A stretch of 64,000 bases of DNA from Escherichia coli (lineage in GTDB: Bacteria > Pseudomonadota > Gammaproteobacteria > Enterobacterales > Enterobacteriaceae): the NCBI RefSeq assembly GCF_017348835.2, contig NZ_CP071375.1; one strand, given 5' to 3'. A program made the position numbers and the translations under genes. Numbering within the stretch: position 1 is the stretch's first letter; each line of letters opens with the position of its first letter. The notes under the pieces were generated by a model. It was not told the DNA's origin. It made no database searches and worked only from the letters and a program-made list of their open reading frames with translations. Below, piece after piece: positions 2,242 through 56,606 of this stretch.

Positions 2242-3199
2242 AGCACTACTGAACGCGGGACGTCAGACGTTAATGCTGGAGTTGCAGGAAGCAAGCCGCT
2301 TACCGGAACGTCTGGGCGATGATTTTGTTCGCGCCGCCAATATCATCCTGCACTGCGAAGGCAAAGTGGTGGTTTCGGGAATTGGCAAATCGGGCCACAT
2401 TGGTAAGAAAATCGCCGCAACGCTTGCCAGTACTGGCACACCGGCTTTTTTTGTCCATCCGGCAGAAGCACTGCACGGCGATCTGGGGATGATCGAAAGC
2501 CGCGATGTGATGCTGTTTATCTCTTACTCCGGTGGCGCGAAGGAACTGGATCTGATTATTCCGCGTCTGGAAGACAAATCTATCGCGCTGCTGGCAATGA
2601 CAGGAAAACCGACGTCACCGCTGGGCCTGGCAGCGAAAGCGGTACTGGATATTTCGGTAGAACGCGAAGCCTGTCCGATGCATCTTGCGCCGACCTCGAG
2701 CACCGTCAATACCCTGATGATGGGCGACGCGCTGGCGATGGCAGTCATGCAGGCGCGCGGTTTTAATGAAGAAGATTTTGCCCGTTCACATCCAGCTGGG
2801 GCACTGGGCGCTCGCTTGCTGAACAAAGTGCATCATCTGATGCGCCGTGATGACGCCATCCCGCAGGTGGCGGTAAATGCCAGTGTAATGGACGCGATGC
2901 TGGAACTCAGCCGCACCGGTCTGGGGCTGGTGGCGGTATGTGACGCTCAACAACAGGTACAAGGCGTCTTTACCGACGGCGATTTACGTCGCTGGCTGGT
3001 TGGCGGCGGCGCACTCACCACGCCAGTTAATGAAGCGATGACGACAGGCGGCACCACATTACAGGCGCAAAGTCGCGCCATCGACGCCAAAGAGATCCTG
3101 ATGAAGCGCAAAATCACTGCCGCACCGGTGGTGGATGAAAACGGCAAACTCACCGGAGCAATTAACCTGCAGGATTTCTATCAGGCCGGGATTATTTAA
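2234..3199 (+). CDS. gutQ: D-arabinose-5-phosphate isomerase (SIS + tandem CBS domains)
   Basis: 321-aa ORF with a SIS domain ([11 protein letters not shown]) and C-terminal CBS pair; last gene of the srl cluster. Confidence 0.9.
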
Positions 3200-4710
3200 T
3201 CCTTCAATCCCAGACGTTTCGCCAACCGATGCAGGTTGGCGACGTCAGTTTCCAGCATTCGCGCGCAGGCAGCCCAGTTGTGATGATTTTGTGCCAGTGC
3301 CTGACGAATAGTTTCACGCTGGAACGCTTCTGTCGCTTCACGCAGGTTTTGCTTAACAACGGGCACCGCCGCCGCTTCTGGCGGCGGTAACGTCACCTCA
3401 GGAAAAGCAAAATGTTGCGCCTCAAGAATCACTTCATCGCCGTTGCGGGTGGCTCTCGCCAACACTACCGCCCGATGAATAGCATGTTCCAGTTCGCGCA
3501 CGTTCCCCGGAAAACGATAGTGTTGCAGTAAATTTCGCGCTCCGGCACTTAATACCACGCGGGAGAGCCCCAGCCGCAAACGACACTGCTCGCAGAAATA
3601 CCCCGCCAGCAGAATGACATCATCGCCCCGCTCACGCAGCGGCGGCACCGAAAGTGGAAACACGCTCAGGCGGTGGAACAAGTCAGCGCGAAATCGCCCT
3701 GCCAGCACCTCTTCGCGTAAATCGCGGTTAGTCGCCGCCAGCACGCGCACATCGACCCGCAAACTACGGTCATCGCCAACGCGCTGAATATCGCCATACT
3801 GCAACACCCTCAGCAGCTTGGCCTGCAATGCCAACGACAACTCGCCGATCTCATCGAGAAACAGCGTGCCGTTATCCGCCATTTCAAACTTCCCACTGCG
3901 GTTACTGATAGCGCCAGTAAACGCTCCTTTCACATGCCCGAACAACTCACTTTCCGCCACACTTTCCGGCAGTGCGGCACAGTTGAGATAGACCAGCGGA
4001 TTCACCGCCCTTGGCGAGGCTTCATGAATCGCTTTCGCCACCAGCTCCTTACCGGTTCCCGTCTCACCGCTGATTAAGACGTTGAGATCGGACGCCGCCA
4101 CAATCTCAATCTCTTTTTTCAATTGCGTCATGCCTGGCGATAAGCCAATCATCTGCGTCTGTTTCACCGCTTCAAATGGAGCGGCATCGCCCGGCAGCAT
4201 ATTCTGGCTTTCCAGTTGCTCAATCAGCAACGCATTGCTTAACGCTCCCGCCGCCAGCGCAGCAATCAGCCGTAACTCTTCATCGCTGAAAACATCGAAC
4301 TGATCGGGCTGCATCCCGTCGAGCGTCAATGCGCCAATCAGGTTTTGCCCGGCAAACAACGGCAGACCAACGCAGGCGTGAACCTTCAGACTCTCCTGCC
4401 CTGGAATCAAACCGTCATAGGGATCGGGCAATTCGCTGTCTGCGGGAAAGCGCACCACGTCCCCGGCGCGGGCAATCGCTTCCAGCCGTGGATGACCTTC
4501 CAGCGCAAAGCGTCTACCGAGTACATCCTTCGCCAGCCCGTCGATGGCAAGCGGAATAAACTGCCGCGAGTCGTAACGTAGCAACGCAGACGCATCGCAC
4601 TCCAGCACCTGACGCAGCGTGGTGATCAGGCGCTGAAAACGATCCTGATGACCAATCCCACGCTGCAATTCGATGGCGATATTCGCCAGCACATCAACGG
4701 AAAAACTCAT
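3196..4710 (-). CDS. norR: sigma54-dependent nitric-oxide-responsive transcriptional activator
   Basis: 504 aa from MSFSVDV...; GAF domain, AAA+ sigma54-interaction domain ([14 protein letters not shown]) and C-terminal HTH; divergent from norV. The listed ORF starts 25 codons upstream at an earlier Met. Confidence 0.9.
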
Positions 4711-4722
4711 CTTTGCCTCACT

Positions 4723-4778
4723 GTCAATTTGACTATAGATATTGTCATATCGACCATTTGATTGATAGTCATTTTGAC
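4723..4778. promoter_or_regulatory. three NorR-type operator sites (GT-N7-AC) in the norR-norV intergenic region
   Basis: gtcaatttgac (4723-4733), gtcatatcgac (4744-4754) and gtcattttgac (4768-4778) are read directly; the GT-N7-AC pattern is the established NorR enhancer motif. Confidence 0.6.
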
Positions 4779-4833
4779 TACTCATTAATGAGCATAATTT
4801 TATTTATAGAGTAAAAACAATCAGATAAAAAAC

Positions 4834-4849
4834 TGGCACGCAATCTGCA
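4834..4849 (+). promoter_or_regulatory. sigma54 (-24/-12) promoter of norVW
   Basis: TGGCAC-gcaat-CTGCA fits TGGCAC-N5-TTGCW, about 50 bp upstream of the norV ATG and downstream of the NorR sites. Confidence 0.6.
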
Positions 4850-4896
4850 ATTAACAAGACATCTTTTTAGAACACGCTGAATAAATTGAGGTTGCT

Positions 4897-6336
4897 ATGT
4901 CTATTGTGGTGAAAAATAACATTCATTGGGTTGGTCAACGTGACTGGGAAGTGCGTGATTTTCACGGTACAGAATATAAAACGCTGCGCGGCAGCAGCTA
5001 CAACAGCTACCTCATCCGCGAAGAAAAAAACGCGCTGATCGACACCGTCGACCATAAATTCAGCCGCGAATTTGTGCAGAACCTGCGTAATGAAATCGAT
5101 CTGGCGGATATCGATTACATCGTGATTAACCATGCAGAAGAGGACCACGCCGGGGCGCTGACCGAACTGATGGCACAAATTCCCGATACGCCGATCTACT
5201 GTACAGCCAACGCTATCGACTCGATAAATGGTCATCACCATCATCCGGAGTGGAATTTTAATGTGGTGAAAACTGGCGACACGCTGGATATCGGCAACGG
5301 CAAACAGCTCATTTTTGTCGAAACACCAATGCTGCACTGGCCGGACAGCATGATGACTTACCTGACAGGCGACGCGGTGCTGTTCAGTAACGATGCTTTC
5401 GGTCAGCACTACTGCGACGAGCATCTGTTCAACGATGAAGTGGATCAGACGGAGCTTTTCGAGCAGTGCCAGCGTTACTACGCCAATATCCTGACGCCGT
5501 TCAGCCGCCTGGTAACGCCGAAAATTACCGAGATCCTGGGCTTTAACTTACCAGTCGATATGATAGCGACCTCCCACGGCGTGGTCTGGCGCGATAACCC
5601 GACGCAAATTGTCGAGCTGTACCTGAAGTGGGCCGCTGATTATCAGGAAGACAGAATCACCATTTTCTACGACACCATGTCGAATAACACCCGCATGATG
5701 GCTGACGCTATCGCCCAGGGGATTGCGGAAACCGACCCACGCGTGGCGGTGAAAATTTTCAACGTCGCCCGAAGCGATAAAAACGAAATCCTGACCAATG
5801 TCTTCCGCTCAAAAGGCGTGCTGGTCGGCACTTCGACGATGAATAACGTGATGATGCCGAAAATCGCCGGGCTGGTGGAGGAGATGACCGGATTACGCTT
5901 CCGTAACAAACGCGCCAGTGCTTTCGGCTCTCACGGCTGGAGCGGCGGTGCGGTGGATCGTCTTTCCACGCGCCTGCAGGATGCGGGTTTCGAAATGTCG
6001 CTTAGCCTGAAAGCGAAATGGCGACCAGACCAGGACGCTCTGGAGTTATGCCGTGAACACGGTCGCGAAATCGCCCGTCAGTGGGCGCTCGCGCCGCTGC
6101 CGCAGAGCACGGTGAATACGGTAGTTAAAGAAGAAACCTCTGCCACCACGACGGCTGACCTCGGCCCACGGATGCAGTGCAGCGTCTGCCAGTGGATTTA
6201 CGATCCGGCAAAAGGCGAGCCAATGCAGGACGTTGCGCCAGGAACGCCGTGGAGTGAAGTCCCGGATAACTTCCTGTGCCCGGAATGCTCCCTCGGCAAA
6301 GACGTCTTTGACGAACTGGCATCGGAGGCAAAATGA
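4897..6336 (+). CDS. norV: anaerobic nitric oxide reductase flavorubredoxin
   Basis: 479-aa ORF with a metallo-beta-lactamase-like di-iron domain, a flavodoxin domain and a C-terminal rubredoxin CxxC...CxxC; appears full-length. Confidence 0.93.
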
Positions 6337-7466
6337 GCAACGGCATTGTGATCATTGGTTCGGGCTTCGCCGCCCGCCAACTGGTGAAAAATATTCGCAA
6401 ACAGGACGCCAGTATTCCATTAACCCTGATTGCCGCCGACAGCATGGATGAGTACAACAAACCTGACCTCAGCCATGTTATCAGTCAGGGGCAACGTGCC
6501 GACGACCTTACCCGCCAGACGGCGGGTGAATTTGCCGAGCAGTTTAATCTGCTCCTGTTTCCGCAAACCTGGGTGACGGATATCGATGCCGAAGCCCGTG
6601 TGGTGAAAAGCCAGAATAATCAGTGGCGATACGACAAGCTAGTGCTGGCAACCGGTGCCAGCGCCTTTGTCCCGCCAGTGCCTGGGCGTGAGTTAATGCT
6701 GACGTTAAATAGTCAGCAAGAGTATCGCGCCTGTGAAACGCAACTGCGGGATGCCCGACGCGTGTTGATTGTTGGCGGTGGCTTGATTGGTAGCGAACTG
6801 GCGATGGATTTTTGTCATGCAGGCAAAGCGGTCACGCTAATCGACAACGCTGCCAGTATTCTGGCGTCGTTAATGCCACCAGAAGTAAGCAGCCGCTTGC
6901 AGCATCGGTTGACGGAGATGGGCGTTCATCTGCTGTTGAAATCTCAGTTGCAGGGGCTGGAAAAAACGGATTCTGGCATTCTGGCAACGCTGGACCGCCA
7001 GCGTAGCATCGAAGTGGATGCGGTAATTGCCGCCACCGGACTGCGCCCGGAAACCGCCCTGGCACGACGCGCCGGGCTGACGATTAATCGCGGCGTTTGC
7101 GTCGATAGTTATCTGCAAACCAGTAATGCCGATATTTACGCGCTGGGCGATTGCGCGGAAATTAACGGTCAGGTACTGCCGTTCCTGCAGCCGATTCAAC
7201 TTAGCGCGATGGTGCTGGCAAAAAATCTTCTCGGCAATAACACGCCGCTAAAACTACCGGCGATGCTGGTGAAAATCAAAACGCCGGAATTACCGCTGCA
7301 TCTGGCAGGCGAAACCCAGCGTCAGGATTTACGCTGGCAGATTAATACCGAAAGCCAGGGAATGGTGGCGCGCGGTGTTGACGATGCAGACCAGCTTCGC
7401 GCCTTTGTGGTCAGTGAGGATCGGATGAAAGAGGCATTTGGATTGTTGAAAACATTGCCGATGTAG
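6333..7466 (+). CDS. norW: NADH:flavorubredoxin oxidoreductase
   Basis: 377-aa ORF with two GxGxxG/A dinucleotide-binding motifs; 4-nt overlap with norV. Confidence 0.93.
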
Positions 7467-14948: not shown

Positions 14949-15368
14949 TCAAAGAAACCATTCCGGCTTAACGCCAAATCGGGCTGAAAGTGCCTTAATG
15001 TGGGATATTGTCAGGGATCGTTGTCCAGACAAAATCTGACTAACCAGGGATTTAGAGCCGATTTCGTTCTTCAAATCCGCATAGGTCAGATTATGTTGAT
15101 CAATCAACGTGCGAAGTAACGCCACGCCAACCGGCATTGCCGCAACGGCTTTGTCGAACTCTGCAAACTTTTCGTTGTTGTTTTCATACTCTGCAATGCG
15201 GCTCGCCAGAAAGTCGATAAGTGGATTGGTGTCATCTTCTTCAATCAAATATTCGACCAGTTCCAGTGCTTCACGATAATCATCTTCTGAGTCACTGCCT
15301 CCCAGAAAGGGGACTGCATTGACCAGTTCTCTTGTTGCTTTAACAGCGCGTGCAGCATTAGCAGTCAT
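14949..15368 (-). CDS. HigA-like antitoxin (XRE-family HTH)
   Basis: 139-aa ORF with a C-terminal XRE-type HTH (LTYADLKNEIGSKSLVSQILSGQRSLTISHIKALSARFGV); 4-nt overlap with the upstream toxin-like ORF; resembles chromosomal HigA but sits at a different locus. Confidence 0.75.
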   Translation of the reverse strand: MTANAARAVKATRELVNAVPFLGGSDSEDDYREALELVEYLIEEDDTNPLIDFLASRIAEYENNNEKFAEFDKAVAAMPVGVALLRTLIDQHNLTYADLKNEIGSKSLVSQILSGQRSLTISHIKALSARFGVKPEWFL

Positions 15369-15676
15369 TCTTTGTTCTCTCTGTAGTAACGTGTCAGTTT
15401 GTCATACTCTGCGTGATTCGTTATGTGCTTCACAAAGAACCGCTTATTAACAAAGTTTATGTAGGCAATAACCCTAAGATTGTTCCCGCCGACATCCAGA
15501 ACGTACCATTTGTTGCGATATTTAAAATTGTCGAGGTTGGGAAACGCCGTTCGCATTTCTTCTGGCGTAGAAAAATCCGTTTCCTTAATAACCCGATACA
15601 ATGCCTGAAGAGCCAGAGCGTCGTTAGGATATTTACGCGCAGACTCTTCAAATGGCACTTTAGAAATGATGTGCAT
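15365..15676 (-). CDS. HigB-like (RelE/ParE superfamily) toxin
   Basis: 103-aa basic ORF upstream of, and translationally coupled to, the HTH antitoxin; contains a FPxLDNFKY...VGGN.LRV motif as in HigB-type toxins; toxin-first order typical of HigBA. Confidence 0.7.
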   Translation of the reverse strand: MHIISKVPFEESARKYPNDALALQALYRVIKETDFSTPEEMRTAFPNLDNFKYRNKWYVLDVGGNNLRVIAYINFVNKRFFVKHITNHAEYDKLTRYYRENKE

Positions 15677-15837
15677 TTTTAAGTTTTAACTTCCTTATAG
15701 TAAGTAAACAGCCACATCTGCGAGTTCTATCCTCATGTGTTCGGAAACTATAGCTCATCAAATCCAAGTTCACAATATGTAAACACTTGCGCGTGATATA
15801 ATTACCCCCAAAATCCTCATAACCACTCTGCAAAAAG

Positions 15838-16611
15838 TCAGTTCTGATTCACCCCATCAAGCACATCCCCCTTTATCAAGCAACGCTGCGTCAGCGACAG
15901 ATCTTCCGTTTGTGTGTCGCGCCCGGCGATGGGTTTGAGGACGAGTTTACGGTTGGGGGTATAAGTAAAGCGCGTGAGCGCGGGATAGCTTAACTTGCCA
16001 AACCAGCCGTGAACACGCTGCCATTTGGCGTCTTTTACCTGATACAGACTGGTTATCCAGTAACCAGAATTAAACTGCATATCCAGCAATTGCGTGTGAC
16101 CATTGCCTTGTAAATCCAGCAAATCATCTACGCCAGTTTTGCTTGCAGTGTAGAATCCCCAGGGTTCAAAGACACAGGGACGGCCTTCGTGCGTGAACGT
16201 CATGAGGATTAAATGTGCATAGGGCGCCAGACCATTACCGGCACTTGGCAACCAGATAACCAGATCCTGAATGCCGTTACGATCCAGATCGGCGCGATAG
16301 AGCTGCCCTTTGCCCGCCATATTTGCCAGCAACCCCACTGGCACCGTCCAGGATTTACCCGCGCGGTCTTTAGCGGTTAATTGCCAGTAATCCTCTTCAT
16401 TTGGCATCTTCTCAAGCGTCACGCCAGCAACGCCGATTTTTCTAAAATGCCAAGTTTGCTCGGTATAATAAGGCATGGTCAGGAGAGGTTTCAGCGCCCG
16501 CTTTTGCGCATATTCGCTGCCACTCATTGGCAGATATTCGGTAAAGCTGGTGGCCTGTGCAGACTGCACTAAGCTCAATAAAAAAGCGCACATCCCTGTT
16601 CTGATGTTCAA
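15838..16611 (-). CDS. hypothetical secreted protein with two D-x-D-x-N-G-x-x-D-like motifs
   Basis: 257-aa ORF with a predicted Sec signal peptide (MNIRTGMCAFLLSLVQSAQA); DLDRNGIQDLVIW and DLQGNGHTQLLD resemble FG-GAP/VCBS-type calcium-binding repeats. No family I can name with confidence. Confidence 0.55.
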   Translation of the reverse strand: MNIRTGMCAFLLSLVQSAQATSFTEYLPMSGSEYAQKRALKPLLTMPYYTEQTWHFRKIGVAGVTLEKMPNEEDYWQLTAKDRAGKSWTVPVGLLANMAGKGQLYRADLDRNGIQDLVIWLPSAGNGLAPYAHLILMTFTHEGRPCVFEPWGFYTASKTGVDDLLDLQGNGHTQLLDMQFNSGYWITSLYQVKDAKWQRVHGWFGKLSYPALTRFTYTPNRKLVLKPIAGRDTQTEDLSLTQRCLIKGDVLDGVNQN

Positions 16612-24533: not shown

Positions 24534-24550
24534 AAGCATTTTCTGTGCCA
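24534..24550 (-). promoter_or_regulatory. sigma54 promoter of the hyc operon
   Basis: The minus strand reads TGGCAC-agaaa-ATGCTT, placed 35-50 nt upstream of the hycA start. Confidence 0.5.
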
Positions 24551-24663: not shown

Positions 24664-24679
24664 TGGCACAATTATTGCT
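24664..24679 (+). promoter_or_regulatory. sigma54 promoter of the hyp operon
   Basis: TGGCAC-aatta-TTGCT, about 30 bp upstream of the hypA ATG (SD GGAGG at 24701-24705). Confidence 0.55.
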
Positions 24680-30515: not shown

Positions 30516-30869
30516 CTATTCACGAGGTTTTTTCGGACGATATTTTTCCGGCAGTTCTGGCACCGGACGCTTGTCATCGATGAGATGACGCACGGTTAAG
30601 ATCGGATGACGCCACAGCATTCTCGGCCCGGCCCAACGCATAATCTGTTTCATCTCTTCACGCTTTGCAGGCTGGTAACAGTGCACCGGACACTGCTTAC
30701 AGGCTGGTTTCTCTTCGCCGAACACACATTTATCCAGCCGCTTTTGCGCGTAAACAAACAACGCCTCGTAATGCTCCGGCTCCGCTGACGCCTGCGGGCA
30801 TTTCGCTTGATAAAGATCGATCATTTTTTTAATCGTCAGTTTTTCACGAGAGATACGCTTGCCGGACAT
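30516..30869 (-). CDS. ygbA: conserved Cys-rich protein of the NO-responsive (NsrR) regulon
   Basis: 117-aa ORF with several Cys residues, convergent with fhlA and divergent from mutS. Confidence 0.85.
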   Translation of the reverse strand: MSGKRISREKLTIKKMIDLYQAKCPQASAEPEHYEALFVYAQKRLDKCVFGEEKPACKQCPVHCYQPAKREEMKQIMRWAGPRMLWRHPILTVRHLIDDKRPVPELPEKYRPKKPRE

Positions 30870-48540: not shown

Positions 48541-48814
48541 GGGAGTTCTACCGCAGGGGCGGGGAATTCTCAGTGATATCCATCATCGCATCCAGTGCGC
48601 CCGGTTTATCCCCGCTGGCGCGGGGAACACTGCAGGTTTTTAGGGATAGTCACTGCAATACGCGGTTTATCCCCGCTGGCGCGGGGAACACGCAAGCCGC
48701 CCATTTGACGGTCACGCCAGTTACCGGTTTATCCCCGCTGGCGCGGGGAACACCCGGGATAGCCGATAACGATGGCGGCTCTGGGCGGTTTATCCCCGCT
48801 GGCGCGGGGAACAC
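48541..48814 (-). CRISPR. short type I-E CRISPR array: 4 intact 29-bp repeats plus one degenerate terminal repeat, 4 spacers
   Basis: CGGTTTATCCCCGCTGGCGCGGGGAACAC occurs at 48602-48630, 48663-48691, 48725-48753 and 48786-48814, with spacers of 32, 33 and 32 bp. A degenerate copy (18/29) lies at 48541-48569, leaving a 32-bp spacer at 48570-48601. Minus-strand repeat is GTGTTCCCCGCGCCAGCGGGGATAAACCG. Confidence 0.92.
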
Positions 48815-48910
48815 ACTAAGCATACATATCTGTTTTTAAACAAATTTATTCCACATCAACAATCTACCAACTAAATTCAAACATTTCCTTATTTTTAAAG
48901 AACACATAAC
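48815..48910 (-). promoter_or_regulatory. AT-rich CRISPR leader
   Basis: About 96 bp of AT-rich sequence between the last intact repeat and the cas2 remnant, the normal leader position for an E. coli I-E array. Confidence 0.55.
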
Positions 48911-49237
<327 letters not shown>

Positions 49238-49241
<4 letters not shown>

Positions 49242-50800
49242 TCAGCAGCCTCCTGCTTTTTCTCCCTGGCGGCTTTAGCACTTTGCTTCTCCGCCGATGT
49301 TGTAAAATATTTCTTGCGCGCGGTCATGACGCGTTCCAAATCAACGGGCTCATAAGGATTGGTGAATACACGCTCGTCAAAATCCTGACGTGCGAATAAC
49401 CAAATTTCCTTTTGCCATTTGCCGAGTAATTCATCCGCATCCTGACCTTCTTCAATTTGGCGCACTAACCTCAGGAAGCGATGCTGAGTTTTGTTCCAGA
49501 AGTCGATATCCACAAAACTGAAATCACCCCTTGCACCTTTTGGATCGGAGAACCATGCTTCTTTCAATGCACTCCGTAACAGACTCAGAATCCGTGAAGC
49601 CGTTTGCGCAGCCAGCCGCAGCTTCGGTATCTGGCCTTCTTTTTTATTGAGCAATAGAGGGAAATGGTGTTCGTACCAACAGCGAACCTTCATATCTTCG
49701 AAATCATAACCAAATCCCCACAAGCCTATTTTTGTCTGCTTTAGATTGCTGGCATTGAAAAGCTTCACTACCTGTGCGGGGAGTTCAGTATTGTTTTTTG
49801 ATTTACCTTCCTCTATGAGGCCTAACCAGTCGCGCCAGATTAAACCACCTGGTTGTGGTTTAACTGAGTAAAACTCTCCTCCCTCTTTAAGCGGCATACG
49901 GTAAGGTGTTAGAGGATGCCTCCACATGACGTATTGCACCCCATTGTTTTTAAGTGCCATCAAGCTCAATAGAGCGCCGCTCTGACTACCGCAAATATCG
50001 CAGTTGCCAATTGAGGTTGTCTTAAAATCAATACGAATACGCCGAGGCATTCCCCAGTAGGCCTGAAGTTTATTGACTTGTTCATCGGTTATCACAGCAC
50101 CATCCAGTTCACTGGTACGCGTCGGTGCAAGCCAGGGAAAGACCAGGTCATCAAAGGTTTTTGGTAAAGGTAAATCGGCTTCATCCTGTGGCATTACGTT
50201 AAGCCACAGCTTGCGCCACAAAGGGGGTTGTGGATTGCCCTGATACTCCAGCAATTCTATAAGTGTGGTCAGCGGCCCCCCGCCACGTAACCCCGGATAG
50301 TAACCGCGTCCACCTTTGGGAGCATTCAGCTGGATTGAAAAAAGTGCTAAAGGCACACAATGCAGGCATATATGCTGAATTGTATCTCGCTTAATAAAAT
50401 GGTCTTTATTTCGTTCTTTTGTTTGTTTTCCTGGTATGTCAGGAAGAAGCGAAGCAATAGAACTAACCTTAACTCTTAATTCTTCGAAATCCTGCATAAA
50501 TGAAGGTGAATCTGGCCCGAACTGGAAAGCATGTTCTAATAACAGCAATGCTTCCCGTAGCTTTTCGGCTTCCAGTCCGTCTTCCCAGATATCATCCCAA
50601 CGACGATGATCTTTTGGCGCGAAGCTGGTTTGTAGTAACCCCAGCAAAAACTGCCAGGCCGCCCCCTGGAGATCTGCCCGCGGCGCAGCGATATCGACAA
50701 CATTTTCATCCGCCAGATCGACTGGCGCCAGTTTGCCTGTCGTTCCGTCTTTAAAACGAACGGGCAACCACGGGGTTGTCAGAAGTGAAAACGAGTTCAT
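49238..50800 (-). CDS. casA: Cascade large subunit Cse1/CasA (variant distinct from the K-12 allele)
   Basis: 520 aa from MNSFSLLTTPWLPVRFKDGTTGKLAPVDL, a Cse1-type N-terminus; sits between cas3 and the cse2 start with the usual ATGA overlap. The start could instead be the upstream Met at 50860. Confidence 0.7.
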
Positions 50801-53538
50801 ACGCATCCTCTCGTAAAAAAGACCATCCAGGTCGGTTATCCATCCTTTTCGGTGTATCAACTATTCAGAGAGTCTCTGTCGCAGGCATCTCAATCAACCT
50901 TGCCAATCAATCCCTCCCTGGCCGAATACCCGCAACTTTCGTCATCAGTGACTAAAATCACGTTTGCCATCTCCGGATCTTGCCGTTGTTCAACACACCA
51001 CTGCCTGAACGCTTCCCCTTCCAGTAAAGAAAATTCATCCCGATGTTTTTTCCACCAGCTTCGACGCACTCTGGCAACGCTCATTTCCCATGCGTGAGCA
51101 CCGCTGGCATAAGGCTTCACCACACCGTCAATACAGGTAGCCAGCCACAGGGAAACAGACTCTTCAGCCAGACGTGTCGACAGCTTTTCCGGGAGGTAAT
51201 CGTTGATATTGGCGGCATAGCCGGGCCTGAAGTTCAGCATAAACTTTTTAGCCATTGCGCGATCGCAGTAATATTTGCCCACTTGCTCCTGCTCGCTGCG
51301 GGCAAATCCTTCCGGCATTACCACGTCCTCACCGTAGACGGATTCAATAAGAAGCCGGGCTGCGTGTGGCATCTGAATAGCGCCTTGCTCACGCAATACT
51401 CGCTGCGTCAGCCAGATTCGCCCATGATCGGGGTAGACATATGCGCTGTTACGCATCGCACTGCCAAACCATTCGTCACCCGGAGAGTCGTCCCAGACGG
51501 GGGCCAGAATCAGCAATTCAGGAGGGGAACGCTCGTCTTTTCCATCACGCTTTAACTGACCATTAATATCGCGAATATGCCGTTGTAATCGCCCCGCTCG
51601 CTGGATCAGCAAATCAATGGGGGCCAGGTCGGAGATCATTTCGTCCAGGTCAATATCCACACTTTGCTCAATTACTTGTGTACAAACAATGACTTGAGAT
51701 GATCTTTTTAAACTACAATTTTTACCAAAGCGTGCCAGCGTTTCCGTTTCAATTCGCTGGCGATCGCTAAAAGCAAAGCGGCTATGAAAAAGTGAAAGGC
51801 TGGAAGCAGGAATGACGCCGCGGGCAAGTAACTGACGATAAACCTTAATAGCGTCATCGACAGAATTCCGGATCCAGGCGATGCATTTCCCCTGACTTAC
51901 CGCTGATTCGATACGCGCAATACATTCTTGTTCGCTATGAAGCCAACCCACGCTCACGCTACGCTCAACGTCTTTGCGCGTCGCTACCCGGTGCGAATGC
52001 ACATCGGATTTCGTGACATGCGTCAGCCAGGGGTAATCATCCTTTTCCAGGAACGGAGCTTCTTGCTGGCCCTCTGTGCCACGCGCAAAGGCGGCGACAA
52101 GTTTGTCGCGCTGCTGTTGAGATAACGTAGCAGAAAGCAAAATGACGCTGTTTCCGCCACGCACCTGTCGCTCAATCAACCCTTCAAGAATGTACGACAT
52201 GTAAGCGTCACAGGCGTGGATCTCATCAGCCAGCAGGATTTTGTTACTCAACCCCAGAAGCCGCAGATTATTATGTTTAAACGGCATCACTGCCATCATC
52301 GCCTGATCCAGCGTGCCGACGCCAATTTCAGCCAGTAAAGCCTTCTTGTTACTGTCGGCAAACCAGGCTGCACATCCTTGACTGAACGCTTGTTCATCCG
52401 GTTCTTCTGACCCGACTAAATCACCGGACCAGAGTGATTCATTAAAGCGTTCCATTAATGTACGGGCGCTGTGTGCCAGCACCAGGCTGGGGCGGGATTC
52501 TGGCGAAAAGAAAGCAAGCCAGGTTTTGACCAGCCGATCGTACATGGCATTGGCCGTTGCCATTGTTGGCAGGCCAAAAAACAAACCCTGTGCTTTCCTC
52601 GCAGCCATCAACCTGTGCGCCAGGATAAGCGCCGCTTCTGTTTTACCTGCGCCAGTCACGTCTTCCAGAATAAATAACTTTGGCCCTGGCTGGCTGATAT
52701 CCAGATCCAGCACCTTTTGCTGTAATGGTGTCGGGTGCTCAATAAAAGGAAACAGCGTATTAATTCCGGTGAAAGGTGCGGTTTCTGCTTTTGGAGGAAA
52801 GACGGTTAAGGCGTTTTGAGCCTGAACTAAAGTTTTCTGCCAGTAATCTTTAATATCCATTGGGTGTGCGACGCGTGGAAAAAATCGCGTTGACGAACCC
52901 GTCCAGTCTGCGAGTACGACTGTTGCAGAGATATACCAGGAAAGTTGTTTTAAAAGTTCAACGCCCTCGTCATCATCCCAGAATGTGGGAATCTCTATGA
53001 GCGGAAACAGTGCCTTGATTTCAAGGAGAAAATCTCGCGCGGCAGCTTTGTCTTCAGGCAGAAAATTATCCAGCTCATCAATACGGTCAGGTGGTCGACC
53101 ATGATGCCCGGTAGTTATGGACATCCACATCTCTATTACACGTGTAAGTTTACGAGAAGAGAGTGAAGATGAAGGAAGCAACTCCTCACATTCACTTAAA
53201 TAATAATTCCACAGCCAGTAACCCAGCGTTGAATGAGAGATCTTTTCGTAATTCTTTCTGGAACCTTCCGGAATCTTGAGTTCAGGGGCCAGGTAAAGTT
53301 GCTGAAAAGAGCGGGCAAATTTTCCAATATCGTGCCAGCACAACAACCAGGCGAAAAATTGAGCCGCCTGTTCCTTGTCAGAAATCCCTAATTGACGAAA
53401 ATAATCAGCCAGCCCGAAGCAATTTCTTTTAACCATTAAATAGCCCATCGCGGCCACATCCAGCGAATGCCAGCAAAGAAGGTGTGAACCGCCCCGGAAA
53501 TCCTGGAGACTAAACTCCCTGAGAAAGAGGTAAACAGG

Positions 53539-53865
53539 ATGACTAAAAATACTCGTTTTTCCCCCGAAGTCCGTCAGCGGGCGATTCGTATGGTTCTGGA
53601 AAGTCAGGATGAATATGACTCACAGTGGGCGGCAATTTGTTCCATTGCCCCAAAGATTGGCTGTACGCCGGAGACTCTGCGTGTCTGGGTTCGCCAGCAT
53701 GAGCGGGATACCGGGAGTGGTGATGGTGGACTCACCACCGCTGAACGTCAGCGTCTGAAAGAGCTGGAACGTGAAAATCGTGAACTGCGCCGCAGTAACG
53801 ATATCCTTCGCCAGGCTTCCGCTTATTTTGCGAAGGCGGAGTTCGACCGCCTCTGGAAAAAATAA
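53539..53865 (+). CDS. IS3-family transposase OrfA (HTH / leucine zipper)
   Basis: 108-aa [25 protein letters not shown]... that I recognise as IS629/IS1203-type OrfA. Confidence 0.85.
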
Positions 53866-54752
53866 TGCCACTGCTGGATAAGCTGCGTGAGCAGTACGGG
53901 GTCGGACCGGTATGCAGCGAACTGCATATTGCCCCGTCAACGTATTACCATTGTCAGCAACAGCGACATCATCCGGATAAACGCAGTGCCCGTGCGCAGC
54001 ACGATGACTGGCTGAAGAAAGAGATACAGCGCGTATACGATGAAAATCACCAGGTATACGGTGTGCGTAAAGTCTGGCGTCAGTTGTTACGGGAAGGTAT
54101 CAGAGTGGCCAGATGCACTGTGGCACGTCTCATGGCAGTTATGGGACTTGCCGGTGTTCTCCGGGGTAAAAAGGTCCGCACTACCGTCAGCCGGAAAGCC
54201 GTTGCCGCATGCGACCGCGTAAACCGTCAGTTCGTGGCAGAACGTCCAGACCAGTTGTGGGTGGCTGATTTTACCTGGGTAAGCACATGGCAGGGCTTCG
54301 TTTATGTGGCGTTCATCATTGATGTGTTCGCCGGATACATCGTGGGATGGCAGGTCTCATCATCCATGGAAACAACATTCGTGCTGGATGCACTGGAGCA
54401 GGCGTTGTGGGCCCGTCGGCCGTCCGGCACAATCCATCACAGTGATAAAGGTTCTCAGTATGTATCGCTGGCCTACACGCAGCGGCTTAAGGAAGCCGGA
54501 TTACTGGCATCAACAGGGAGTACTGGCGACTCGTATGACAACGCGATGGCTGAGAGCATCAATGGTCTTTACAAAGCGGAGGTAATACACCGTAAGAGCT
54601 GGAAAAACCGGACAGAAGTGGAACTGGCCACACTAACGTGGGTGGACTGGTATAACAATCGACGATTGCTGGAAAGGCTGGGCCATATTCCTCCGGCAGA
54701 AGCAGAAAAAGCTTATTATGCTTCCATCGGAAATAATGATCTGGCAGCCTGA
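53865..54752 (+). CDS. IS3-family transposase OrfB (DDE integrase core)
   Basis: 295-aa ORF with an rve-type catalytic core (...HHSDKGSQY...YDNAMAESINGLYKAE...); its ATG overlaps the orfA stop (TAATG). Confidence 0.85.
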   Translation: MPLLDKLREQYGVGPVCSELHIAPSTYYHCQQQRHHPDKRSARAQHDDWLKKEIQRVYDENHQVYGVRKVWRQLLREGIRVARCTVARLMAVMGLAGVLRGKKVRTTVSRKAVAACDRVNRQFVAERPDQLWVADFTWVSTWQGFVYVAFIIDVFAGYIVGWQVSSSMETTFVLDALEQALWARRPSGTIHHSDKGSQYVSLAYTQRLKEAGLLASTGSTGDSYDNAMAESINGLYKAEVIHRKSWKNRTEVELATLTWVDWYNNRRLLERLGHIPPAEAEKAYYASIGNNDLAA

Positions 54753-55094: not shown

Positions 55095-55247
55095 CTACTT
55101 CTTCGATTCGTAAGCGAGAACAGCCTTAAACTCCATACCACGTTCCCTGATACTCAACTCACACAACGAGTCGCCTACCATCAGCGTGAATCCCAGTACT
55201 GTACAACACAGTACGATGATTGCCACAAGGGCATATTTTGTCAGCAT
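55095..55247 (-). CDS. Hok/Gef-family small membrane toxin
   Basis: 50-aa [53 protein letters not shown] with an N-terminal TM helix and the conserved SLCE...AYES C-terminal pattern; not in the supplied ORF track because it is below the size cutoff. Confidence 0.75.
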
Positions 55248-55308
55248 GTCTGTGTAAGTTCACAGAGATATTGCAATTGCCTCCGGATAAGTAAGGGGAG
55301 ATTGCACT

Positions 55309-56330
55309 ATGCAAATGCAGCATCTGATGGTTGGCTATCCTAAGTACTACCAAACGGCCGATTATGCGTTGAGGCTTTCAGTGATGGCTGATATAGCAAC
55401 AATGAGAATGAAGGCTCTGCACTTCTGGGATAAACACGGTATTTCTGCAGCTTCTGAAGCCTTTGGCGTGTCCTGCCGCACGCTTTACTGGTGGCGTCAG
55501 TTACTGAACAAGGAAGGACCTGAGGGGCTAATCCCGCACAGTAAGGCACCTCTGGTGCGACGAAAAAAACACTGGCATCCCGATGTGCTGAAAGAGATTC
55601 GACGCCTCAGGACAGAGCTGCCGAACCTCGGTAAAGAGCAGATTTTTGTTCGCCTGAAGCCCTGGTGCGAACAGCGCTATCTGGCCTGTCCGAGTGTTTC
55701 CACCATCGGCAGAATGATCGCTGCCGCACATGATAAAATGCGGATGATACCTGTGCGTCTGGGATCGCGGGGGAAGGCACTGCTTGTCAAAAAGCGGTCT
55801 GCCAAACCCCGCAGGCCAAAGCACTACCGCCCGGTAAAGACAGGTGAGCTCATTGGGATGGACGCCATTGAGCTCAGAATGGGCGAACTGCGTCGCTATG
55901 TCATCACCATGATCGACGAATGCAGCAATTACGCGCTGGCTGTGCCGTCACTCAACAGTGATATCGTCAATCACTTCTTCAGCCGCGCAGCCCGGTTGTT
56001 CCCGGTCGGTATCAGCCAGATAATCACAGATAACGGAAAAGAGTTCCTGGGAAACTTCGACAAAACGCTGCAGGAAGCCGCTATCAAACACCTCTGGACC
56101 TATCCCTACACGCCAAAAATGAACGCTATCTGTGAACGTTTTAACCGGACGTTAAGAGAGCAGTTTATTGAATTTAATGAGATTTTACTCTTTGAAGATC
56201 TGGCGCTATTTAACCAGAAGCTGGCGGAATATCTGGTGCTGTATAACAGCAAAAGACCCCACAAGGCGCTCGCACTAATGACGCCCGTGGAATATATTTT
56301 AAAAGAGAATAAAAATTGCAATATGTGGTG
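55309..56330 (+). CDS. DDE (rve/integrase-core) transposase, IS481-family-like; element ends not resolved
   Basis: N-terminal HTH (ISAASEAFGVSCRTLYWW) followed by an integrase core (ITDNGKEF...YTPKMNAICERFNRTLREQ...YNSKRPHKAL). The listed ORF runs on to 56739 into cysH antisense, which I take as read-through; the true 3' end is estimated near 56300-56330. Confidence 0.6.
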
Positions 56331-56606
56331 GACCCATACAATGTCTTGCCTCCCTGCAAAGAAGAGACTAACATTCGAATTGCTTAGGTTCGAACGCTGG
56401 CCTCAGGTTGATAGAAATATCGCCTGGGGCTTTTGTCCATCTGGAACCTCGCGAATGCTTAACGCCAGACAGCCTCAAGCACCCGACGCCATTCTATACC
56501 TGATAATTCTTCCAGCGGCGTTCACGTTTAAAATCAGGAATGCTGCTCGCAAAATAAAAACGCCCCCATCATTTCTGACAGAGGCGTTTAATTTATCCGG
56601 CAATAT

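Follow-up and report, generated by a model that had tools for sequence, protein, structure and literature searches.

A norR–norV intergenic region of Escherichia coli with the features of the canonical NorR enhancer and sigma-54 promoter

Does the DNA between the divergent genes norR and norV of this E. coli genome hold a complete set of control elements for the response to nitric oxide (NO), and are the genes on either side of it intact? Positions 4711-4896 of the window, by which we mean the whole 64,000-nucleotide stretch of DNA that was analysed, make up the entire norR–norV gap of 186 bp, bounded by the norR ATG (complement of 4708-4710) and the norV ATG at 4897. We read this gap as the canonical control region of norR–norVW in E. 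coli, with a probability of roughly 0.93. Its cis elements (Table 1) are all identical to the characterized ones of K-12, and the three genes norR, norV and norW and their key residues are intact. The norRVW module is thus predicted to be inducible and active in this strain. A working module also needs rpoN and IHF, and rpoN and ihfA/ihfB lie outside the window. The wording 'appears functional', which the original prediction used for it, is an inference from sequence. The system itself is already known and well studied and is found here in its standard form.

The enhancer can be compared directly with the one that has been mapped experimentally. In the work of Tucker et al. 2010, GG-N7-CC took the place of GT-N7-AC at each site, and when their six mutagenic primers are mapped onto the window, the two engineered bases per site are the sole differences (PMC2831303). 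The numbering used here, with site 1 being promoter-proximal, follows from these primer positions, and the 21-bp site-1 oligonucleotide of the same study has an exact match at 4764-4784. The three sites match, base for base, those that were mutated and footprinted in that work. The original prediction had proposed three GT-N7-AC sites at the expected spacing and had named a mismatch to the experimentally mapped NorR sites as the result that would speak against it; the sites are present, starting at 4723, 4744 and 4768, their centre-to-centre spacing of 21 and 24 bp is identical to that in K-12, and the alignment reveals no mismatch beyond the engineered bases of the primers. These are the only GT-N7-AC matches inside the gap, and all three read GTCA-N4-GAC, an extended form of the motif. 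A further perfect palindrome, GTCAACGTGAC at 4934-4944, within norV codons 13-16 (GQRD), was considered as a fourth NorR site and rejected. Its presence hinges on a synonymous third position in a Gly codon, and 10 of 15 relatives lack it though the peptide GQRDW is invariant, which marks it as a by-product of coding and not as a conserved site.

The consensus strings GT-N7-AC and -24/-12 are by themselves not statistically distinctive and have to be used with caution. The 64-kb window contains 189 GT-N7-AC matches, and a loose, non-overlapping triple within a comparable span occurs in 38% of 300 Markov-1 simulated 64-kb sequences. Also, matches to TGGCACNNNNNTTGCW with at most one mismatch are not above chance, with 3 found in the window and 4.0 expected. 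Both frequencies would be compatible with the motifs being chance matches in AT-rich intergenic DNA with no regulatory role. However, the extended motif GTCA-N4-GAC has 16 strand matches in the window where 5.9 are expected, and none of the 300 simulated 64-kb sequences contained a triple of it. The sites also agree fully with the ones that Tucker et al. altered by mutation and footprinted (PMC2831303), and are conserved across genera, beside norR homologs in at least 36 independent species, and we consider an origin by chance hardly credible. It is this identity to mapped sites and this conservation, not the motif statistics, by which the sites of the canonical region are judged to be real.

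Downstream of the enhancer, a TGGCAC-N5-CTGCA element had been predicted about 50 bp before the norV ATG, which is an acceptable description, the 3' end of the promoter lying 48 bp and its 5' end 63 bp before the ATG. No other stretch of the window matches TGGCACNNNNNYTGCA; the -24 GG and -12 GC elements of the promoter are 10 bp apart, and it is situated between the enhancer and norV. In the open complex at the norV promoter, permanganate reactivity has been observed between -11 and +1 (PMC2941729). While the three sites and the promoter are arranged as originally described, that description left out the IHF element between them: the stretch that separates the NorR sites from the norV start site is bound by IHF (PMC2831303), and a motif scan places a putative IHF-like box in this interval. 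From the predicted transcription start, the 5' leader of norV would be ~37 nt long.

Table 1. Coordinates of the regulatory elements and genes of the norR–norVW region in the window.
Feature	Position	Strand	Sequence or product	Basis or remark
norR	3196-4710	-	504 aa, NO-sensing sigma-54 enhancer-binding protein, GAF + AAA+ + C-terminal DNA-binding	ORF, translation
NorR enhancer site 3, promoter-distal	4723-4733		GTCAATTTGAC	Site3 primer (PMC2831303) maps to 4711-4740, differs only at two engineered bases
NorR enhancer site 2	4744-4754		GTCATATCGAC	Site2 primer (PMC2831303) maps to 4737-4762, differs only at two engineered bases
NorR enhancer site 1, promoter-proximal	4768-4778		GTCATTTTGAC	Site1 primer (PMC2831303) maps to 4760-4787
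IHF-like element, putative placement	4815-4827	+	AAACAATCAGATA	motif scan, 2 mismatches to WATCAANNNNTTR
Sigma-54 promoter, -24/-12	4834-4849	+	TGGCAC-GCAAT-CTGCA, TGGCACGCAATCTGCA	identical to K-12
Predicted norV transcription start	4859-4861	+		predicted from sigma-54 geometry, ~12 nt after C of the -12 GC at 4848
norV Shine-Dalgarno	4888-4891	+	GAGG	read directly from sequence
norV	4897-6336	+	479 aa, flavorubredoxin NO reductase, full length	Pfam ODP/Lactamase_B, Flavodoxin_1, Rubredoxin
204-bp norV segment deleted in O157:H7 clades 1-3, present here	5746-5949	+	aa 284-351, flavodoxin domain	global alignment to the 1236-bp strain 111 allele
norW	6333-7466	+	377 aa, NADH:flavorubredoxin reductase	Pfam Pyr_redox_2, Rbx_binding

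The regulator encoded upstream is complete. An intact norR of 504 aa had been claimed, and the reading frame is uninterrupted, with no internal stop; its product contains the Pfam domains GAF, Sigma54_activat and AAA_lid_14 and reaches 826.5 bits against the NCBIfam equivalog NF003451, for which the cut-off is 476. The Walker A motif GETGTGKE and the Walker B motif are present, as are R75, R81, D96, Y98, D99, H111, C113, D131, Q304 and the GAFTGA motif at residues 262-267. Among these, R75, D96, D99, C113 and D131 are the iron ligands (PMC4601167), and R75, R81, Y98, D99, H111, C113, F264, G266 and Q304 have been discussed in the literature (PMC2941729). Seven substitutions distinguish the protein from that of K-12 (T177A, C316S, Q380L, S399R, S423N, T443P and V446A), none of them at the residues checked. 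A longer norR, starting at an ATG at 4785 (529-aa ORF, 3196-4785), would run through all three enhancer sites. This start was rejected because, at 14 of 16 related loci, the alignment of the homolog begins with residue 1 of the protein that starts at 4710, two of these 14 being one or two residues short at the C-terminus.

Since only 13-68 bp separate the three sites from the norR ATG downstream of them and RefSeq labels K-12 NorR a 'dual regulator', negative autoregulation is likely, and NorR bound at the sites probably also limits transcription of norR. Hutchings et al. reportedly found, in 2002, about three-fold negative autoregulation of norR. A reading in which the sites serve, on the other strand, chiefly as operators for the repression of the divergent norR gene by its own product is in our estimate an even bet, and it would be an additional role and no true alternative to the activation of norV. 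For Vibrionales, Rodionov et al. have proposed that norR2 is negatively autoregulated via a NorR site in front of it (PMC1274295). However, a sigma-70 consensus scan of 4600-5000 yielded no minus-strand norR promoter candidate, its sole match being on the plus strand at 4742-4769 and at chance frequency, and activation of norV via the same sites has been demonstrated directly (PMC2831303).

The target genes of the canonical region are likewise complete. The claim that norV is full length and without internal deletion holds, as it encodes 479 aa without internal stops and retains the 204 bp that O157-type alleles lack; norW is also free of internal stops, and its start overlaps the norV stop (ATGA). 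NorV, a class B flavodiiron protein with a metallo-beta-lactamase-like di-iron domain, a flavodoxin domain and a rubredoxin domain at the C-terminus, scores 1045 bits against NCBIfam NF003954 (cut-off 711), can be aligned to PDB 4D02 over residues 1-479 and differs from the K-12 protein by three substitutions. It carries H79, E81, D83, H84, H147, D166 and H227 as well as Cys428, 431, 461 and 464, which we take to be the di-iron and rubredoxin residues of the E. coli enzyme. For NorW the score is 681 bits against NCBIfam NF003437 (cut-off 392), two dinucleotide-binding motifs of the type GxGxxG/A are found (GSGFAA at residue 9 and GGGLIG at residue 148), and eight substitutions separate it from the K-12 protein. 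Its fold is that of a pyridine-nucleotide disulphide oxidoreductase, with a C-terminal domain for rubredoxin binding. None of the substitutions in NorR and NorW affects a residue known to be essential. In the strain 111 allele, the 204-bp deletion lies between GCGGTG repeats. The norV deletion and its distribution over the clades of O157:H7 have been described previously (PMC8779985, PMC7558590).

As a whole, the 64-kb window belongs to the E. coli chromosome and is the reverse complement of positions 1014521-1078520 of the pig isolate PE164 (NZ_CP114128.1), with 3 mismatches, and norR, norV and norW of PE164 are annotated as intact by PGAP. Only six records are at least 99% identical to a 12-kb query. 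The O157:H7 strain TR01 is 100% identical to a 311-bp query covering the norR–norV region and has only this local allele in common with the window; an ungapped, position-by-position comparison of the first 50 kb gives 26,510 mismatches, a number inflated by out-of-register indels. The 311-bp query was matched in 5,425 of 5,426 complete E. coli genomes, with the flanks annotated as norR and norV among the matches listed. A 70-bp block covering the enhancer is exact in 3,538 records and has 1-2 differences in the other 1,885. Five full-length gap alleles were aligned (window, K-12, O157 FRIK2069, S88 and strain 9), and all differences among them fall into spacers, at 4759, 4760, 4791, 4795, 4822, 4852 and 4854. 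Site 3 is identical in K-12, O157, S88 and strain 9, and site 2 shows no change among those of the sampled E. coli alleles which still possess it.

Compared with K-12 MG1655, the gap has no indel and two substitutions, at 4791 and 4854, both outside all sites and both A in the window and G in K-12. The former belongs to the spacer that separates site 1 from the IHF-like box; the latter is at about -6 of the norV promoter, where most E. coli have G as K-12 does. The exact 45-bp promoter block 4822-4866 was found in 9 full-length records at 100% identity and in 14 in the band of at least 99%, out of 5,426, a rarity that is due to the A at 4854. Its carriers are mostly livestock-associated and include PE164, F2_81, N96, TR01, 06-00048, 32F4, 33F4, 33E and 2017-02-2CC. 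It is improbable that the G-to-A change at 4854, possibly together with the A at 4791, measurably changes basal or induced norVW expression; if it did, the allele would represent natural variation in promoter strength within a defence against nitrosative stress. A broader form of this idea holds that the architecture is complete on paper and that its output has been altered in this lineage, by 4854, by 4791 or by the substitutions in NorR, NorV or NorW. Such an alteration could be suspected from the rarity of the block among E. coli records, from the position of 4854 within the stretch between -11 and +1 that turns single-stranded (PMC2941729) and from the seven NorR substitutions relative to K-12. 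However, the -24 and -12 elements are unchanged, positions -12 to +1 vary freely among Enterobacterales, other E. coli have a change at 4852, and a G-to-A change would, if anything, make melting easier. Furthermore, the functionally characterized residues of NorR are all retained, and NorR, NorV and NorW all score far above their equivalog cut-offs. Hence, we regard an altered output as very improbable and retain the reading of the gap as a canonical regulatory region.

A more drastic variant of the gap is present in AF3, a human blood isolate (NZ_OZ547117.1, locus 362-502), in which, through a 45-bp deletion, the left half of site 3 now adjoins the right half of site 1, so that only one site remains. 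Given the published requirement for three sites (PMC2831303), the AF3 allele should be unable to induce norVW.

Several other features of the window were noted. Two further sigma-54 matches with at most one mismatch, at 24535-24550 on the minus strand and 24664-24679 on the plus strand, stand back to back in the hycA–hypA gap. We take them to be the FhlA-dependent hyc and hyp sigma-54 promoters, which serve as internal positive controls, and all three sigma-54 matches are located upstream of operons known as sigma-54-dependent. The gene fhlA also lies inside the window (labelled 'flhA' by PGAP in TR01 and PE164), so that, with the norV promoter and the hycA–hypA matches, two sigma-54 regulons are represented. 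Also present is ygbA (~30516-30869, minus strand), annotated as a 'nitrous oxide-stimulated promoter family protein' and presumably a member of the NO-responsive NsrR regulon; as such, it would provide the neighbourhood of norRVW with a second NO-response gene under regulation of its own. Between hycI and ascB, a HigB-family toxin, an HTH antitoxin pair and a 251-aa hypothetical protein are encoded at ~14950-16600; at the same place in TR01, ascB is directly followed by hycI and none of these genes is annotated.

Further downstream, a type I-E CRISPR-Cas locus at ~48600-54750 is degraded. Its short array of 4 repeats at 48602-48812, part of which carries a hypothetical-protein annotation in PE164, was found by a direct repeat search and was missed by Tandem Repeats Finder. 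In this interval, cas2e adjoins a casB fragment, casA and cas3 are present, and none of cas7, cas5, cas6e and cas1 is annotated. Directly next to cas3 there is an IS3-family element that has an ALIL pseudoknot at 53820-53936. A Hok/Gef gene at ~55095-55247 is separated by a partial integrase-core pseudogene from a sok antitoxin RNA (Rfam RF01794) at 56335-56484 on the minus strand, the whole arrangement spanning 55095-56484.

How the elements of the norR–norV gap would work together can be described from the literature on K-12, from which the following steps are taken and in which the cis elements are identical. Three NorR dimers would bind the three tandem inverted repeats at 4723-4778, and the enhancer DNA would favour assembly of a NorR hexamer. 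In K-12, all three sites are needed in vivo, for the ATPase activity of NorR and for open-complex formation, and hexamer formation is promoted by enhancer DNA; IHF is involved in the system as well (PMC2831303). [quoted passage not shown] Binding of NO to the ferrous iron of the NorR GAF domain would then relieve the repression of the AAA+ ATPase, a repression that acts via the GAFTGA surface (PMC2941729), and ATP hydrolysis would lead to the open complex and to transcription of norV and norW from ~4860. The flavorubredoxin NO reductase NorV and the NADH-dependent reductase NorW would together reduce NO at low oxygen. A scheme of NorR regulation is available in a review (PMC4601167).

For annotation, the value of the locus is that it specifies the norRVW defence against nitric oxide in complete form, whereas norV of O157:H7 clades 1-3 has the 204-bp deletion, and its complete enhancer contrasts with that of the occasional isolate such as AF3, in which only one site is left. 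An intact norV has been tied in some studies to the survival of EHEC and to Shiga-toxin regulation under NO. As a discovery the region has little weight, as it is among the best characterized sigma-54 enhancer–promoter pairs and is found in essentially every E. coli genome.

The arrangement extends well beyond the species. When a single genome of each species was scanned for triples of GTCA-N4-GAC spaced as in E. coli, at least 120 loci were obtained, and in at least 36 of them, among the matches listed, no more than 150 bp separate the triple from the N-terminus of a NorR homolog. These NorR-adjacent loci include Enterobacterales, many Pseudomonas and several beta-proteobacteria, a distribution that agrees with the survey of Rodionov et al. 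(PMC1274295). The remaining loci are tandem arrays in metagenome-assembled genomes (MAGs) of Bacteroidales or isolated matches, mostly in high-GC genomes. The arrays, with a period of ~23 bp and one GTCA-N4-GAC per unit, are found in MAGs of Bacteroides, Parabacteroides and Prevotella, often several per genome, and no NorR homolog is located nearby. In an alignment of 17 Enterobacterales norR–norV gaps, taken from the matches listed and with a mean identity of 60%, the three sites are invariant, partly by construction, as the loci were found with that very pattern. Outside the selection pattern, TGGCA, G130 and G137, corresponding to the -24 element with the following G and to the G of the -12 element, are invariant in all 17 species. 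The IHF-like block reads AATCAA-N4-TTA in most relatives, with C108, A109 and T116 invariant, and in front of the norV ATG the block TGAGGTTGCT is conserved in 12 of the 17 species and TGAGGT in 13.

Among the known systems, norR–norVW of K-12 (b2709–b2710; Tucker et al. 2004, 2010; Bush et al. 2010) is the closest, with the same 186 bp, the same sites, 21/24 spacing, promoter, distance to the ATG and Shine-Dalgarno sequence, and it differs only by having G at the two substituted positions given above. In O157 FRIK2069, which has an intact norV of 1440 bp, the gap differs from the window only at 4759 and 4854, whereas norV of O157:H7 clades 1-3 (Sakai, EDL933) has suffered the 204-bp in-frame deletion and encodes 411 aa instead of the 479 aa found here; the window itself is not from an O157 genome, its best match being PE164. 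In other Enterobacterales (Citrobacter, Enterobacter, Kluyvera, Lelliottia, Siccibacter, Moellerella, Morganella and E. albertii), norR and norV are likewise divergent, three GTCA-N4-GAC sites with the same spacing begin ~13 bp off the norR start, and behind them come an AT-rich spacer that contains an IHF-like box and then TGGCACG. However, the spacers of these species have diverged to the mean identity of 60%, and most of them have a perfect match to the IHF-like consensus where E. coli has two mismatches. The -12 element also varies, reading TGAT and not CTGCA in 10 of the 17 (Enterobacter cloacae, an Enterobacter MAG, Lelliottia, Pseudescherichia, Siccibacter, Morganella and others). In Enterobacter, Lelliottia, Pseudescherichia, Siccibacter and Morganella, the norV promoter has the form TGGCACG-N4-(T/C)TGAT, in which A replaces the C of the -12 GC, whereas CTGCA is found in Escherichia, Citrobacter and Kluyvera. 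More distantly, the NorR/FhpR-type loci of Pseudomonas and beta-proteobacteria show the same three-site pattern beside a NorR homolog of 44-54% identity, and the same GT-N7-AC consensus has been described for them (PMC1274295). Some of these loci have TGGCAC-N5-TTGCA 41-42 bp downstream, an enhancer-to-promoter distance shorter than that of E. coli, and according to the literature the NorR/FhpR-type systems of these groups serve other targets, hmp/fhp or norA/norB.
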